Shown here: positions 17,811 to 35,342 of the stretch, one piece after another
Position numbering within the stretch: the first letter of the stretch is position 1
Layout: every line of letters begins with the position of its first letter
Source of the DNA: a virus
Lineage: Duplodnaviria > Heunggongvirae > Uroviricota > Caudoviricetes
Length of the DNA: 44,487 nt
Reading direction: 5' to 3' (one strand)
Virus record (IMG/VR): IMGVR_UViG_2718218131_000009
Coordinates: 1-44,487 of that record
The notes under the pieces: generated by a model
The model's database searches: none
What the model was told of the DNA's origin: nothing
Seen by the model: the letters and a program-made list of their open reading frames with translations, nothing else
Position numbers and translations under genes: made by a program

Positions 17811-18088
17811 TCCTGTTCGACAAAAATCCGGGGTTTACCGTTGTACGTGTCATAACGGGTCACCGTCAGTGTGCGGCCCTCAAACACAACAACATCATGA
17901 CGGGCCGGACGGTACCGGGCTGAAAACACCACCAGTGACAACTGGCTGCCCGAAAGCGCCCCCATCTCCGCGGACTCTTCCTCCGGCATCACGTCGTACA
18001 CGACGCCGTTAATCTCCGCCTGTTTGCCCATCATCCGAACGGTCGCCACGTCCATCCGGCAACACATTCGCGTAAACAGATCAGACAT
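17807..18088 (-). CDS. Head-tail joining protein (FII-like), putative
   Basis: 93 aa, positioned between the head genes and Z. Assigned by position only. Confidence 0.55.
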   Translation of the reverse strand: MSDLFTRMCCRMDVATVRMMGKQAEINGVVYDVMPEEESAEMGALSGSQLSLVVFSARYRPARHDVVVFEGRTLTVTRYDTYNGKPRIFVEQE

Positions 18089-18407
18089 TGATTTTTACCG
18101 CCACAGTGGCGCTGTTTGCAGGAGCATTTTCCCAGGCTACCCCCGCGGCCACCGCACCGTCGGCAGCCAACTGCACAACCCCGTCCTTCAGATAAACCAC
18201 CGCGCCGGACTGAATGTCGTCAGCAGACTGTTTGGGCAGCAGGAACACGCCTTCGGCAAAACCGTCACCGGCCTCACCGGCAGGAATATCGGTAATGGCC
18301 ACGGCCACCATACTGCCGACCACCACCGCAGCACCGCTCAGGATGGTCTGATCTCCGGCATTCACCAGTTCAATGGTGGTACCGTCCTGTACAAAATTTT
18401 TCGCCAT
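18081..18407 (-). CDS. Head-associated Gly/Ala-rich protein (DUF2190-like), putative
   Basis: 108 aa beta-rich Gly/Ala/Val protein immediately after the capsid gene. Confidence 0.5.
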   Translation of the reverse strand: MAKNFVQDGTTIELVNAGDQTILSGAAVVVGSMVAVAITDIPAGEAGDGFAEGVFLLPKQSADDIQSGAVVYLKDGVVQLAADGAVAAGVAWENAPANSATVAVKINV

Positions 18408-18494
18408 AATGCTGTTTCTCCGGACAGCCCCTGTGGGGCTGTTTTTCAGGCATAAAAAAAGCCCTTTCGGGCAGTGATTGTGATAACGCGGTTA

Positions 18495-20474
18495 TCAGGC
18501 CACCGACGAACGCACCAGCCCGCGCCAGTCAAGTGGTGCCACTCCGGCATCAATACGGATTTTTGTGGCAATGCCGTCAGTGGTGAAACCTTCCTGCTGA
18601 TCAATGTATGGCGTGTCCACACCATCCAGCCAGGCCACTTCAATGGTGTCAGTGCCCTGTGCCGCCGCCAGATACCAGGTTTTCGGGTCTGCCGCATCAA
18701 GACGCGCTTCTGCAATCACCTCAGCAAAGTTCTGGATAGGGTTAATGACACCGGCGTTTGCATCCGCCCCTTTCACACTGGCCGATTTGATGGTCTGGTT
18801 CGCCACCGTCTCCAGTGCCACCGGTACCAGCATAAAGGCCGGACGGATATTCAGGGCACGATCGCCTTCTTTCTGCAGGCGCATCATCTGACGGGCCGCA
18901 TCCAGTCCGGAAACGGAGATCCCCCCGGTGGCAATATTTTTGTGATCGGCATGGAACAGCGCCTTACCGTCGGACAGTTTCGGGTTATCCGTCAGCACCT
19001 TGTAGACCAGGTCACCAATCGTTGCCTTCGCCGCACGCCCCATCTTCATCGGCACGTCCACCAGCATATTCAGATCATCATTGATAATGGCCTGGCGGGT
19101 GATGGAGAAAATCTCCCCGTAAGTGGCCAGTGCAATGGTCTCCTTGCGATCTGAGGTGGTGATGTATTTATACTCCGCCCCCTCACGAACCTGGCGCAGA
19201 GAACCAAAACCTCCCATCCCCACGCGATACGCTGTTTTGAAGTCTGACAGGCGTCCCTTACGGGTCCACTTCTGGAAGGTTTCTTCTGATTCCTCCCAGC
19301 CCTGGATCAGCCCCTTGTTCGACACATCCAGCAGAATATTGCCAAAATCAGAGGTGCTGTGCGTCAGCGCCAGCCCGACCATCTGCATGGGGTTATAACT
19401 GGCCACCCCAATACCGCGCTCCGTCAGTGACATGCGAGCCCATTCACGCAGGGTCATCCCGTTATAGGCGTTATCCTTCTCGACATTTTCAAATCCGGCA
19501 CGGGCCAGCATCGCCTGGCGGATCCCGTCCCCCACAAAATTGCCGTTTCCGGCATAAATATGGGCCGGTGTATTTTTGTTGGTCGGCGAGGACTCCTTGC
19601 CCATTTCATTCAGCAGTCGTTCACGGGCCATTTCCAGCGAACAGTCAGGATCAGCCACGCACTGTGCCTGAAGCGTCTGATAGCGACCGCCGAACATGGC
19701 AAACAGATCGTTAATGCCTGACATGCGGGCTTTCTGTTCTGCCATAACGCGGGCGCGAATGGTCGCCTCATCAGACACTGCCGGTACCGGTGATGGTTCT
19801 GTTACCGCCGGTGCAGGGATTGTCACTGTGGTATCACGCGGGGCACTGTTGCGTGGCGGAGTAATCATGTTTCGGATGGATTCCGGCATCTTTTTAAATT
19901 CCTCTGTACGTTTTGACTGAATACATGCCATTGCCTCAACAGCGGGTGTCACCTGGTCAGCAAATCCGTGTGCCAGACATTCGGCACCGGACATCCAGGT
20001 TTCATCCGCCAGCATGGCGGCAATTTCATCGGTGGTTTTTCCGGTTTTCTGCGCATAGGCTGGCAACAGTACCGATTCGACTTTATCCAGCAAATCGGCA
20101 TAACTGCGCATATCCTCAGCATCCCCGCCACTGAATCCCCATGGCTTATGGATCATCATGAAGGCATTTTCCGGCATAATGACCGTATCACCGGCCATCG
20201 CAATCACAGATGCCATCGAGGCGGCAACGCCATCCACATACACGGTAATGGTCGCCCCCTGATTTTTCAGGGCATTAAAAATGGCGATGCCTTCAAAGAC
20301 ATCGCCACCCGGTGAATTGATATGGAGATTAATGTGGGTGATATCACCCAGTGCATTCAGTTCGCTGACAAACTGCTTCGCGGTAACTCCCCAGAAACCA
20401 ATCTCGTCATAAATATAAATATCCGCGTCACCCGGCCCCCCAGCTTGCATCCTGAACCAGGATTTATTCTTCAT
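18495..20474 (-). CDS. Prohead protease (ClpP-like) fused to HK97-fold major capsid protein
   Basis: N-terminal ClpP-family region (HINSPGGDV, ASMASVIAMAGD) followed by a capsid-like C-terminal region of about 400 aa. ATG at 20474 (MKNKSWFRMQ...). Confidence 0.85.
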   Translation of the reverse strand: MKNKSWFRMQAGGPGDADIYIYDEIGFWGVTAKQFVSELNALGDITHINLHINSPGGDVFEGIAIFNALKNQGATITVYVDGVAASMASVIAMAGDTVIMPENAFMMIHKPWGFSGGDAEDMRSYADLLDKVESVLLPAYAQKTGKTTDEIAAMLADETWMSGAECLAHGFADQVTPAVEAMACIQSKRTEEFKKMPESIRNMITPPRNSAPRDTTVTIPAPAVTEPSPVPAVSDEATIRARVMAEQKARMSGINDLFAMFGGRYQTLQAQCVADPDCSLEMARERLLNEMGKESSPTNKNTPAHIYAGNGNFVGDGIRQAMLARAGFENVEKDNAYNGMTLREWARMSLTERGIGVASYNPMQMVGLALTHSTSDFGNILLDVSNKGLIQGWEESEETFQKWTRKGRLSDFKTAYRVGMGGFGSLRQVREGAEYKYITTSDRKETIALATYGEIFSITRQAIINDDLNMLVDVPMKMGRAAKATIGDLVYKVLTDNPKLSDGKALFHADHKNIATGGISVSGLDAARQMMRLQKEGDRALNIRPAFMLVPVALETVANQTIKSASVKGADANAGVINPIQNFAEVIAEARLDAADPKTWYLAAAQGTDTIEVAWLDGVDTPYIDQQEGFTTDGIATKIRIDAGVAPLDWRGLVRSSVA

Positions 20475-21966
20475 GCTGGCTTTCGGTGTCGCGCTGATAC
20501 TGTCGTTCAGTTCCGGCACTGTTGCCTCCTTTGTCGTTGACGGGGTCAGTATCAAAGACCAGCCCCAGTCTGCTGTTTTCATCAATTTCAGCCTTGCGGC
20601 GACGTTTGACCTCATCCGGATTGCGCCCACCGGCACGCACCCAGTCAGATTCTGTCGCTGCACCACCCCGGATCTGAATTCTCCAGGCTTCAGCTTCCTT
20701 AACCGGGTCGATCCACGGCATCACCGGACCGGAATACGTCGCGTTATATAGCGTTTTCATCTCCACATCCGCCGGAATTTTCAGCAGACCTGCCGCAACC
20801 ACCATATTCAGCCATGTCCGGTACACCGGGCGGGTTACCGCGCCAATAAAACAGTCCTGCAGGATCAGGTAACCATCCGTGGACTCGACCAGCTCCTGCC
20901 GCTGGGCGCTGTAGGTGCCGTTATAGTTACGCGCCGCACTGGAAAAACTCAGACGACTGCCTGCTGCCACTGCACGCAACTGGCCGTTGCGGAAAGTTTC
21001 AAGGTTGGGATTGGGACGGTCAGATTTGACCATGCCGATATCCTCGCCCTTGCGCAAATCGTCATAAATAATACCCGGGGTGATATGGACTTCCCGCTCG
21101 GTCTCTTTGATCCCCGGATCTTCATAGTCCTGTCCGTCACCTTTACGGATATACAGTCCCAGCGCCGCAGCAATACGCGCCGCTGTCAGTTCCGCATCCT
21201 CATACTCCTTAAGGGCACTGATCCGCATCAGCACCCCCGATAACATGGATGAGCCTCGCGTCTGATGCAGACGACGAGTGAACTTCAGGTGGATCATTTT
21301 TCCGGCAGCGATTTCTTTCGTATCACTCTGCCGGCCGCTGACCGGATAATTTTTATAAACCAGATATTTTTTCGGTCTTCCCCACTCATCAAGAAAAACC
21401 CCCTGATTCAGTCCGGCGGATTCATCAGTGCGCATGGGAACAAAATCCGGCTCCATCGCCTCAAGCCAGAATGGCACTCCCGCCGTCCGTTCCAGACCGT
21501 TTCCCGCACCACTGACCATCTGCGCAAACACTTCACCATCCCGCAGCCAGGTCCGCAGCAGTAAACGTTCAAGCACAGGACGGGTATACTGCCCTGTCAC
21601 ATCCGGACTCACGGACCATTCAGCCCACAAACGGCGGATATCCGCAGCCAGCTCAGCCGCCATTTCCCCGTTTTTTCGTAATGGCTGAGGCTCCACAATA
21701 ATTCCCCTGGCACCAATCACCCGCTCTTCCAGCTTGTCAAACACACCAATCACCAGGTCATGATTGATATCCAGAAAACGGGCCTGCTCCCGCAGGGAAA
21801 CCGCACCGTATTTACTGAGCTGATCAGCAGAGCGATTTTCCCGCCGGGCTTTATGTGTCCGGGTCGGTTTCACCGCCTCATAGGCCATGATTAACGCCCT
21901 TGAACGCAGTCTGGCTGCTTTCCACCCGGGGGAAAACACGCCGATCACATCATCAATAATTGCCAT
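20464..21966 (-). CDS. Portal protein
   Basis: 500 aa, positioned between the terminase and the protease-capsid gene. Confidence 0.9.
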   Translation of the reverse strand: MAIIDDVIGVFSPGWKAARLRSRALIMAYEAVKPTRTHKARRENRSADQLSKYGAVSLREQARFLDINHDLVIGVFDKLEERVIGARGIIVEPQPLRKNGEMAAELAADIRRLWAEWSVSPDVTGQYTRPVLERLLLRTWLRDGEVFAQMVSGAGNGLERTAGVPFWLEAMEPDFVPMRTDESAGLNQGVFLDEWGRPKKYLVYKNYPVSGRQSDTKEIAAGKMIHLKFTRRLHQTRGSSMLSGVLMRISALKEYEDAELTAARIAAALGLYIRKGDGQDYEDPGIKETEREVHITPGIIYDDLRKGEDIGMVKSDRPNPNLETFRNGQLRAVAAGSRLSFSSAARNYNGTYSAQRQELVESTDGYLILQDCFIGAVTRPVYRTWLNMVVAAGLLKIPADVEMKTLYNATYSGPVMPWIDPVKEAEAWRIQIRGGAATESDWVRAGGRNPDEVKRRRKAEIDENSRLGLVFDTDPVNDKGGNSAGTERQYQRDTESQHEE

Positions 21967-26884: not shown

Positions 26885-27937
26885 TTATTTCCCCACCAGC
26901 TCGTTTATCTCTTTCACTGTCTGGTTAAACCGCTCTGACTCAAGCTCAACACCTAATGCCCGACGCCCCAGCGCCATTGCTGCTTTTATTGTGGAACCGG
27001 ATCCCATAAAAAAATCAGCAACCAGATCACCTGGTCGACTACTGGCATTGATTATTTGCCTGAGCATATCCGCCGGTTTCTCACACGGATGTTTCCCCGG
27101 GTAGAACTGAACGGGTTTATGCATCCAGACATCGGTATAAGGCACGGAGACTGATACGGAGAAATAGCGCCGGAGAGATTTAAACTCATCCAGCAATTCA
27201 GAATATTTACGATTCAGTGAATCATAAGATGCCACCAGCTGGTGGTGTGGTTGTTCCAGTTGTTGTTCCTGAAACTTCTCTGCCGCTATACGGGAAAACA
27301 GTGCCTGTAACTTCCGATAGTCAGCCTCATTCGGCAACTGCCACTGACTGGCACCAAACCAGTGGGAAACCATATTTTTCTTACCTGTGGCTTCGGCAAT
27401 TTGTTTTGCCGTTATACCCAGTTCGGCACGAGCATCCCTGAAATACGATATCAGCGGTGCCATTATGTGCTGTTTGAGTTCCCTTTCTTTTGCTGCATAG
27501 CCGTCACTTTTGCCGCGATATGGCCCCTGGTAATGTTCAGCAAACAGAACGCGCTCTGTGGCAGGAAAATATGCACGCAGACTTTCTTTATTACACCCAT
27601 TCCAACGTCCGGACGGCTTCGCCCAGATGATATGGTTAAGCACGTTGAAACGTTCACGCATCATGATCTCAATATCAGATGCCAGGCGATGCCCACAGAA
27701 CAGGTAAAGGCTTCCGGCAGGTTTTAACACCCGCCAGAACTGGGCCAGACAGTGGTCCAGCCACTTAAGGTAATCTTCGTCCCCTTTCCACTGATTGTCC
27801 CAGCCGTTGGGTTTCACCTTGAAGTACGGCGGATCGGTAACAATCAGGTCAATGGAATCATCAGGCAGGGACTGAATAAAATGCAGGCAATCAGCGTTGA
27901 TTAAATCAACACTGTTTATTTTTACAGTATTTTTCAT
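26885..27937 (-). CDS. DNA methyltransferase (beta-class N6-adenine/N4-cytosine), orphan
   Basis: Motif IV DPPY near the N-terminus and motif I FMGSGST near the C-terminus. No adjacent restriction endonuclease gene. Confidence 0.85.
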
Positions 27938-33973: not shown

Positions 33974-34194
33974 GCTGCACCTCCGAGATGCTTCATGTTT
34001 TTTCCGGAGCGAAAGGCTATAAGCGGCATACTGACGCGGTAATTACGGCCCAACGGTTCACAAATCACTTTCTGACATTCACGGTCAACCAGGCTAACAC
34101 GTAGAACATGCCCTGCAGGCGTGGTGTACCACTGGCCCGGACGAGGACAACGGAAAGTCTGATTGGTAAACCGTTTGAAAATATTCCGGATCAT
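33970..34194 (-). CDS. Hypothetical protein (74 aa)
   Basis: Translationally coupled (ATGA overlaps) to both the Rha-domain gene and the replication initiator. Confidence 0.5.
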   Translation of the reverse strand: MIRNIFKRFTNQTFRCPRPGQWYTTPAGHVLRVSLVDRECQKVICEPLGRNYRVSMPLIAFRSGKNMKHLGGAA

Positions 34195-35342
34195 TTGCGC
34201 CCCCTTACCTCTGAAGGGTTCAGTGACAGATTTATGAGACTGGCCAGTACCGCCGCGTCGTTGATGCGGTCATACAGACTTATAGCCAGCGGGGATTCGG
34301 CTTTTGCCAACATGGGATAAAGCTGCTGCAGCCAGACTTTGTGGATTACCGACAAGTGGGAGTAAAGCACGCTGGCGTTATGTGCGGCATCGCTCAGCGT
34401 GGATGGCCTTGAAAGCTGCTTTTCCATCTGGTTAAAGGCATTGATGTATGCCTCTTTGAACTGGGCAGCACGTTTCCCCGTGAAACCCATAGCAAGAAAC
34501 GCAAAGCCGTCGCGGGTTATTTGATAGCAAGGTAGTTTGCGGCCTGTGCAATCGGTGTAATCACTCACCGAAAAATTGCGGGCAGTGAATGATGCGGAAC
34601 ATTCAAGCGTGCGGATCTTTTTCAGTACATCGTCATGACGTTTGGAGAAGAAGTTGGCAACAGCCAGGGATGAAGTAACAGCCTGACCATCAACGATGGC
34701 AATTTCAGGTTGAGTGAGGGTTGGGATCGTAGCCATGATGGCAGCCTCTTTGGTGATTTTTAATAACTCACCACCAAGGCTTTCCACGACCTTATTGGTG
34801 GTGAGACGTACAGGGGTGGAAATACCGGTCACCAAAGAACCCGGCCCAACCGAAGTTGGCCCTGCACGCCCCACCATAATTTGGGCGTAATGCTGCTCAT
34901 GACACAAAAAAACCGCAAGAGCGCGGTTGTGCGCTTTGGTGAATTCCGGGTTTCCACGCCCGGCACCCGCTTTATAAGGTGCCTGAACAGTGTAACGTCC
35001 CGGAATGGCAGAATCAATGTGCTGGTGGTCCTTCACACTCAACAAAATCACGCCTGAATTTCCACAAAGGACTAAAGCACTCATGCGGGTAGTCTTTGCG
35101 AAGATAGATAACGCGCTGCGTTTCTGGCTCCCAACGAATAACATGGACATAAAGCCCTCTTCCGTCACGAAACCAGCGGTTAAGTTCCTGCACAACTCGC
35201 CCCCCACAGTCAGGTAAAGTTCTCTGTGGTTACTTACAGCCAGGTGATTTGGTAATCTGCATTCATGCCGTAACAACAGGTGTTCAGCGACGCTGACCAC
35301 CAGCTGTTGCGACAAACGGTTATTTGCCGTTAAACTGTTCAT
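34191..35342 (-). CDS. Rha-family regulatory domain protein with ~200-aa N-terminal region
   Basis: C-terminal half (from M203, ATG at 34736) is IPTLTQPEIAIVDGQAVTSSLAVANFFSKRHDDVLKKI, a Rha domain. The upstream 202 codons are in frame and begin with an ATGA overlap to the CII-like gene. Confidence 0.6.
   Translation of the reverse strand: MNSLTANNRLSQQLVVSVAEHLLLRHECRLPNHLAVSNHRELYLTVGGELCRNLTAGFVTEEGFMSMLFVGSQKRSALSIFAKTTRMSALVLCGNSGVILLSVKDHQHIDSAIPGRYTVQAPYKAGAGRGNPEFTKAHNRALAVFLCHEQHYAQIMVGRAGPTSVGPGSLVTGISTPVRLTTNKVVESLGGELLKITKEAAIMATIPTLTQPEIAIVDGQAVTSSLAVANFFSKRHDDVLKKIRTLECSASFTARNFSVSDYTDCTGRKLPCYQITRDGFAFLAMGFTGKRAAQFKEAYINAFNQMEKQLSRPSTLSDAAHNASVLYSHLSVIHKVWLQQLYPMLAKAESPLAISLYDRINDAAVLASLINLSLNPSEVRGRK

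Follow-up and report, generated by a model that had tools for sequence, protein, structure and literature searches.

The fused head gene and its domains

The Caudoviricetes genome studied here (IMG/VR record IMGVR_UViG_2718218131_000009; the whole stretch of 44,487 nucleotides (nt) is referred to as the window) carries at positions 18495..20474 of its minus strand one coding sequence (CDS) for a ClpP-like prohead protease, a scaffold-like linker and a major capsid protein. Coordinates below refer to this strand unless stated otherwise. Open reading frame analysis of the window gives 659 codons without interruption from ATG 20474..20472 to TGA 18497..18495, and the same frame remains open upstream of this ATG to position 20666. 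These bounds, which the original prediction shares with the RefSeq annotation by the Prokaryotic Genome Annotation Pipeline (PGAP), delimit a product of 659 amino acids (aa) and 71.5 kDa that is identical to WP_000792357.1. Within this one polypeptide, Pfam profiles detect CLP_protease at aa 31-176 (E 1.7e-36) and Phage_capsid_4 at aa 365-656 (E 8.6e-56), so that the protease and capsid domains indeed share a single reading frame, as had been claimed. The contrast drawn with phage lambda, where C and E are separate genes, is equally correct. No stop or frame interruption was seen between the two domains (a search for frameshift signals was not part of the analysis), and a promoter/terminator scan within the gene returned nothing relevant above shuffled expectation.

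This gene architecture has been described and curated before and is very frequent in Escherichia coli, and the heading under which it was originally described is essentially the existing RefSeq annotation, since WP_000792357.1 is named 'ClpP-like prohead protease/major capsid protein fusion protein'. NCBIfam model NF045540 (scaf_prot_MCP1), which carries the same name, is matched with 1004.1 bits against a cutoff of 475, aa 17-657 of the protein covering profile positions 2-651 of 652. Further matches are NF045542 (Clp_rel_HeadMat; 224 bits, cutoff 120) and, over the full length, PHROG 133 (phrog_133; 1154 bits). The annotation of the NF045540 family mentions neither a central scaffold part nor a GTG start or an internal start. 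Among phage records, the fusion protein is 100% identical in Escherichia phage ASU11, 97-99.8% identical in VT1-Sakai, CP-1639, 1720a-02 and several Stx2-converting phages, around 78% identical in mEp460, cdtI, mEp213 and LLS, 62-64% identical in Fels-1 and Gifsy-2 and around 58% identical in Pseudomonas F10-like phages. A search of 1.84 billion representatives yielded well over 100 clusters (50% identity) whose proteins of 640-750 aa match over the whole length, the most divergent at 36% identity, and a scan of one genome per species located the fusion in Enterobacterales, Pseudomonas, Pasteurellaceae, Shewanella, Ferrimonas, Psychromonas and Oceanimonas.

This distribution bears on whether the fusion could be an artefact or a pseudogene, i.e., separate protease and capsid genes that only an error in sequencing or a mutation of recent date has connected. 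Two loci might be read that way: a related one in which a 1-nt indel places both parts in different frames, and VT1-Sakai, where the copy is interrupted by IS629. Nonetheless, the identical intact frame is found in hundreds of independent genomes, the fusion is retained across the divergent clusters mentioned above and NCBIfam includes two curated models of such fusions, so this explanation can be regarded as effectively refuted. The 4.3-kb stretch with the portal, fusion and decoration genes is matched in 2071 out of 5426 complete E. coli genomes. As the portal-fusion-decoration region recurs at no less than 99% identity in 417 E. coli genome records and RefSeq holds an intact CDS at exactly the coordinates given above, the fusion is no sequencing accident.

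Several database entries related to the fusion deserve a remark. In VT1-Sakai (AP000400, 1525..4793; the Stx1 prophage of E. coli O157:H7 Sakai), the IS629-disrupted copy is 99.8% identical and its halves are annotated as 'scaffolding protein' and 'hypothetical protein'; with its fusion gene split, this prophage should be unable to make its own heads. Public names are inconsistent and include 'Clp protease', 'head maturation protease', 'Nu3', 'scaffolding protein', 'major capsid protein' and 'terminase protein'. Four database proteins of 407 to 1027 aa (P0091, P0134, P0159 and P0110) combine the capsid domain with terminase or unrelated N-termini. These are seemingly chimeras from assembly or gene calling, with the potential to mislead surveys of domain architecture.

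The domain structure, whose prediction had been proposed as a check, was modeled with AlphaFold2 (AF2) on a 79-sequence alignment from a profile search (39-95% identity; mean predicted local distance difference test score (pLDDT) 79). This model, which supersedes one on 34 sequences of at least 76% identity (mean pLDDT 36), resolves protease, linker/helix and capsid segments and is the source of the domain map. The ClpP-like (peptidase S14-type) domain spans aa 4-180 (19935..20465; pLDDT 83-94). Foldseek aligns it to solved ClpP structures with target-normalized template modeling (TM) scores of 0.74-0.83 and root-mean-square deviations of 1.7-3 Å, and phmmer matches ClpP 6hwm at 2.8e-18. The best 50 Foldseek matches in the PDB are all ClpP, hence no solved capsid neighbor is among them. 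The ClpP-like assignment is thus borne out by Pfam, NCBIfam and structure comparison alike. Ser86 (codon 20217..20219) lies in the motif AASMAS, corresponding to the ClpP context GxAASMAS, and His109 (codon 20148..20150) in MMIHKP; both residues are invariant in alignments of 52 and 79 sequences with 35-95% identity.

One element of the catalytic site is less clear-cut. Conservation of the canonical ClpP Asp is not evident: Glu158 (codon 20001..20003), conserved in at least 90% of the family, aligns with it, while the adjacent Asp157 is variable and replaced by Lys in Gifsy-2. The phage protease may use a Ser-His-Glu triad or a Ser-His dyad, judging from the alignment. A more radical reading of the same position is that the ClpP-like fold at the N-terminus has no catalytic activity and acts solely as scaffold, with another protease maturing the head. 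Given the Ser86 and His109 motifs that are invariant throughout the family, and given that neither a Pfam scan nor the RefSeq annotation reveals another head protease gene between the terminase and tail genes of the module, this is very improbable. As to an active protease, it is reasonable to infer that the capsid matures through self-processing of the fusion, as the original prediction held, in view of the two invariant catalytic residues and of the literature on Gifsy-2, whose 62%-identical gene is cited as a fusion of prohead protease and coat.

Between the protease and the capsid domain lie two disordered linkers and a short helical segment. The first linker (aa 206-233; 19776..19859) is of low complexity and rich in Pro, Thr and Ala, has a pLDDT below 50 and varies in length and sequence among homologues. 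It is followed by a three-helix segment (aa 236-294; 19593..19769; pLDDT 81-87) with helices at aa 236-259, 266-274 and 280-294 and conserved columns R250, F258, C272, L287 and L288. By analogy to the delta domain of phage HK97, this segment is most likely a built-in scaffold. The stretch aa 196-304 counts 109 aa, which is near the size of the HK97 delta domain (around 100 aa). The second linker (aa 295-311; 19542..19592; pLDDT below 50) contains an 8-aa insertion in Gifsy-2. In the model, it is one candidate region for maturation cleavage, the other being the surroundings of aa 365-375 at the beginning of the Mu-gpT-like core.

The remainder of the protein (aa ~312-659; 18498..19541) constitutes the major capsid domain, which AF2 models with confidence and which is of the Mu-gpT/Phage_capsid_4 type with an HK97-like fold and a Pfam core at aa 365-656. 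The assignment rests on PF25209 (8.6e-56; 190 bits, cutoff 27) and PF10124 (6.4e-10; 39 bits, cutoff 20), and Foldseek aligns the domain to the major capsid protein A0A8S5TI44 in BFVD (E 4.4e-20, TM 0.81, 292 columns); an HK97-family BFVD entry matches as well. A PDB sequence search with the capsid part alone finds the major capsid protein 9jod_A (1.9e-5) and the Mu GpT-domain structure 8rkc (0.002). The capsid assignment of the original prediction is hence well founded.

Start of the full-length product

The gene upstream of the fusion encodes a lambda-family portal protein (20464..21966; PF05136, 2.8e-80; TIGR01539, 443 bits) that is 64% identical to the Gifsy-2 portal. Its stop codon TAA is located at 20466..20464, so that a frame beginning at ATG 20474 shares 11 nt with the portal gene. 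The originally reported overlap is thus confirmed, whereas the ATG itself is probably not the true start. A GTG (20519..20517) lies 15 codons further upstream in the same frame, and the extension that it adds (20475..20519) gives a product of 674 aa and 73.1 kDa that begins M-PELNDSISATPKAS. This GTG is preceded, with a 5-nt spacer, by the perfect Shine-Dalgarno (SD) sequence AAAGGAGG (20525..20532), which is situated inside the 3' end of the portal gene; with this start, the overlap with the portal gene amounts to 56 nt.

Comparison with homologues points in the same direction. Their shared N-terminus 'MP...' starts 15 codons upstream of ATG 20474, while the residue aligned to the ATG itself is S, A, P, L or V in most of them. 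In mEp460, the in-frame GTG and its SD are conserved and an ATG is absent at the 20474 position. The 674-aa form is the representative of a cluster with 3481 members. Based on the perfect and conserved SD and the shared 'MP' N-terminus on the one hand, and the poor SD and unconserved codon of ATG 20474 on the other, these sequence comparisons lead us to consider GTG 20519 the likely true start; the N-terminal peptide to be expected from it is PELNDSISATPK.

Translation from ATG 20474, yielding the 659-aa protein, is the choice of PGAP, and it has in its favor that ATG is the commoner start codon and that the 11-nt overlap with the portal stop would permit coupling. Yet, the sequence upstream of it, GACACCGAAAGCCAGC, is a weak SD with three out of six positions matched, and neither mEp460 nor most other homologues have an ATG there, in contrast to the SD of GTG 20519, so we regard the shorter protein as unlikely. 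Public start annotations disagree, with products of 652, 659, 674 and 706 aa.

A candidate internal start and nested product

The fusion gene also contains a candidate start codon in its interior. Met196, followed by Pro197, is encoded by an in-frame ATG (19887..19889) at the protease/linker boundary: the NF045541 profile matches from aa 198 and phrog_4523 from aa 195. An SD-like GAGGA (19900..19904) precedes it, with the AGGA core (19903..19900) 10 nt before ATG 19889. Initiation at this codon would give a scaffold–capsid product of 464 aa and 50.5 kDa without the protease, whose N-terminus, if the product is made, would be Pro197 (PESIRNMITPPR).

The conservation of this site was assessed in the one-genome-per-species scan, as the relatives from a scan of IMG/VR were all at least 77% identical and too redundant for codon tests. 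In the subfamily of Gifsy-2, F10, mEp460 and Pasteurellaceae members (at least 52% identity), the Met196 codon is ATG in all loci (73/73). After dereplication below 85% identity, 40 sequences remained, in which positions -14 to -11 read A, G, G and A in 38, 39, 40 and 40 cases, respectively. Codon 191, which supplies the 'AG', specifies E, Q or K (30, 5 and 5 sequences), yet it ends in G without exception (40/40), compared to 3-83% G-ending codons in 28 other conserved E/Q/K columns. Since the residue varies and the final G does not, selection acts on the nucleotides and not on the residue. In addition, the 45-nt mRNA interval at ATG 19889 is the least structured of the gene (-4.2 versus -10.5 ± 3.4 kcal/mol), and the openness at the internal ATG extends over the 40 sequences (mean z +1.6).

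Beyond the subfamily, the feature seems to move rather than to disappear. In each of four relatives at 38-47% identity whose DNA was inspected, a Met-Pro at another linker position follows GAGGA, GAGGT, AAGGGG or AAGGAG at a distance of 6-10 nt. A linker Met is present in all 79 aligned members, typically as Met-Pro or Met-Thr and usually after residues rich in E, K and G. The internal-start feature thus appears to be family-wide but positionally mobile, with an SD and Met at the far linker end in distant clades. Taken together, the signatures suggest that the internal SD and ATG 19889 yield a nested, protease-less scaffold–capsid protein. With moderate confidence, we therefore favor a reading in which the 'single fusion gene' is in fact two nested genes, the ratio of whose products would set the number of protease domains per procapsid, and in which the internal site is under purifying selection. 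With such a start, not every capsid subunit need bear a protease.

A number of observations weigh against this reading. The internal SD is of moderate strength, with a duplex energy of around -6 kcal/mol, which ranks it in roughly the most favorable 7% of gene positions. Outside the subfamily, Met196 is lost and I, A or V takes its place, so that the Met could have a structural role there. Two database proteins resembling stand-alone scaffold–capsid genes that begin at this Met proved to be something else and give no support for separate genes: P0211 is a contig-end truncation and P0163 a 1-nt frameshift of a fused gene in an apparently degraded prophage. The same moderate SD and the same replacement of Met196 in more distant fusions could also point to a single product, a full-length polyprotein in which each shell subunit has its own protease and the internal ATG and AGGA are a fossil or serve another role, i.e., a relic of an ancestral scaffold–capsid gene, a translational pause or a constraint on RNA or protein. 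The abstract of the Gifsy-2 study is said to describe one composite gene, and packing all subunits in full-length form looks physically feasible, as the protein inside a T=7 procapsid would come to ~16 MDa by a rough, uncomputed estimate. A fossil, however, would hold neither a wobble base in 40 out of 40 sequences where other synonymous sites are randomized nor an unusually open surrounding mRNA, and it would not recur as an SD and ATG at another linker position in distant clades. We accordingly deem a single product possible but doubtful and retain the two nested genes as the preferred reading.

An internal start, or proteomics of such heads, is not described in the searchable literature, a body of text that does not include the primary Gifsy-2 paper. 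In a related locus in GCA_000755365.1 (2357..4332), a 1-nt indel close to where the protease domain ends puts the scaffold–capsid part in a different frame, and the gene caller begins the capsid gene exactly at the Met196-equivalent ATG, behind an AAGGA. Either this prophage is decaying or the locus represents a natural 'unfused' variant.

Head module, known counterparts and proposed assembly

Downstream of the fusion lies a head decoration (cement) gene of the DUF2190/Phage_cement_2 type (18081..18407; PF09956, 6.6e-19; phrog_122 'head decoration', 4e-39), 54% identical to its Gifsy-2 homologue. The order of portal, fusion and Phage_cement_2 decoration protein is kept in the four relatives at 38-47% identity, and Phage_attach comes next in three of them. 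Directly after the capsid stop, the hairpin GCCC-GAAA-GGGC followed by T7 (18454..18472) is found, and a second hairpin of 7 bp (CAGCCCC ACA GGGGCTG) follows between the fusion and decoration genes. In mEp460, a rho-independent terminator is annotated at the equivalent spot. This region may be an attenuator that sets the ratio of capsid to decoration protein.

The window further includes a number of genes outside the head module. Beyond the tail-fiber and Lom genes, 673..4077 of the plus strand encodes a DUF4765 protein of 1134 aa (1708 bits); its gene region has a GC content of 32-35% versus around 55% in the phage structural genes and looks like horizontally acquired cargo. Other prophage cargo or regulatory genes, all on the minus strand, code for a SocA/Panacea-domain antitoxin-like protein (43915..44487), a DNA methylase (N6_N4_Mtase; 26885..27937) and an Ash/Rha-domain regulator (34191..35342). 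No tRNA genes were found within the window.

The closest described counterpart is the 'tripartite capsid gene' of Gifsy-2 (STM1034.3n.Gifsy2; NC_010393, 22471..24561), which has the same three-part architecture in an identical gene order of lambda-type portal, fusion and small decoration protein. The two products are 62% identical over aa 3-658 with 13 gaps, the central domain of ~200 aa included, and Gifsy-2 also has an internal Met-Pro with GAGGAG upstream. Differences are the host, a diverged low-complexity linker, a longer N-terminal leader and the Lys in place of Asp157. Experimental work, the cryo-electron microscopy of Effantin et al. 2010 (Virology 402:355), reportedly concerns Gifsy-2 only. 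A passage of PMC12315714, citing that study, describes the prohead protease and coat genes of Gifsy-2 as fused and the heads of mEp213 and LLS as being of the same type, and a passage of PMC8538268, with the same source, places trimeric cement proteins of Gifsy-2 at the 3-fold axes.

Other well-studied heads share parts of this design. HK97 and T5 have N-terminally fused scaffolding domains (PMC10275583). Compared to HK97 gp4/gp5 and T5 pb8, the gene described here differs in that the HK97 protease is a separate gene with a herpesvirus-like fold, and the HK97 capsid forms a covalent chainmail and is not stabilized by a decoration protein, unlike what is proposed here. Phage lambda, with its head genes C/Nu3/D/E, resembles the present module in its portal and terminase family, in the linkage of protease and scaffold and in a decoration protein that forms trimers. 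Nu3 is reported to be translated from an in-frame start inside lambda C (attributed to Shaw and Murialdo, 1980), and the internal SD and ATG would be the counterpart of that start. Lambda differs in that the capsid protein E is a separate gene, protease C belongs to the S49 (SppA-like) branch rather than to S14, and decoration protein D falls in a Pfam family other than Phage_cement_2. To the I/Z/T genes of Mu, the link is the capsid domain, which is Mu gpT-like (PF10124; PDB 8rkc, E 0.002). Both Mu Z and herpesvirus UL26.5 are scaffold products from within a protease–scaffold frame, but in Mu and herpesvirus the major capsid protein is encoded by a separate gene, whereas the nested product proposed here would include the capsid domain.

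Altogether, we consider it highly probable that the gene supplies the head shell of a lambdoid prophage of the Gifsy-2 type, encoding a tripartite polyprotein with the assembly route and the probable nested start outlined here. Domain identities, family, synteny, Ser/His conservation and start signatures were computed; the assembly order, self-cleavage, cleavage sites, scaffold role and use of the internal start are what we infer. Translation would be coupled to the portal gene's end and begin at GTG 20519. A procapsid would form on the portal from the capsid domains, the scaffold and protease portions facing inward, and the internal start would lead to a shell mixing protease-bearing and protease-free subunits. 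The co-encapsidated protease domains with Ser86 and His109 would then remove everything N-terminal of the capsid domain. During DNA packaging, the shell would expand, to be stabilized by trimers of the decoration protein encoded at 18081..18407 and not by HK97-type crosslinks. Such a logic would be that of lambda C/Nu3 and Mu I/Z, merged with the scaffold–capsid fusion of HK97.

Publications have covered the fusion since 2010, a dedicated NCBIfam model exists for it, and more than one third of complete E. coli genomes carry it, Stx-converting phages included. As originally stated, its finding thus adds nothing new; membership in a curated and common family, the central scaffold-like domain, the likelier GTG 20519 start and the probable internal start had all been missed, and the value lies in the corrected start and the nested-start hypothesis. 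If true, the internal start would explain how a phage with a protease–coat fusion avoids around 400 protease domains per procapsid. With a nested product, a widespread head type would join the nested-gene logic of lambda C/Nu3, Mu I/Z and herpesvirus UL26/UL26.5.

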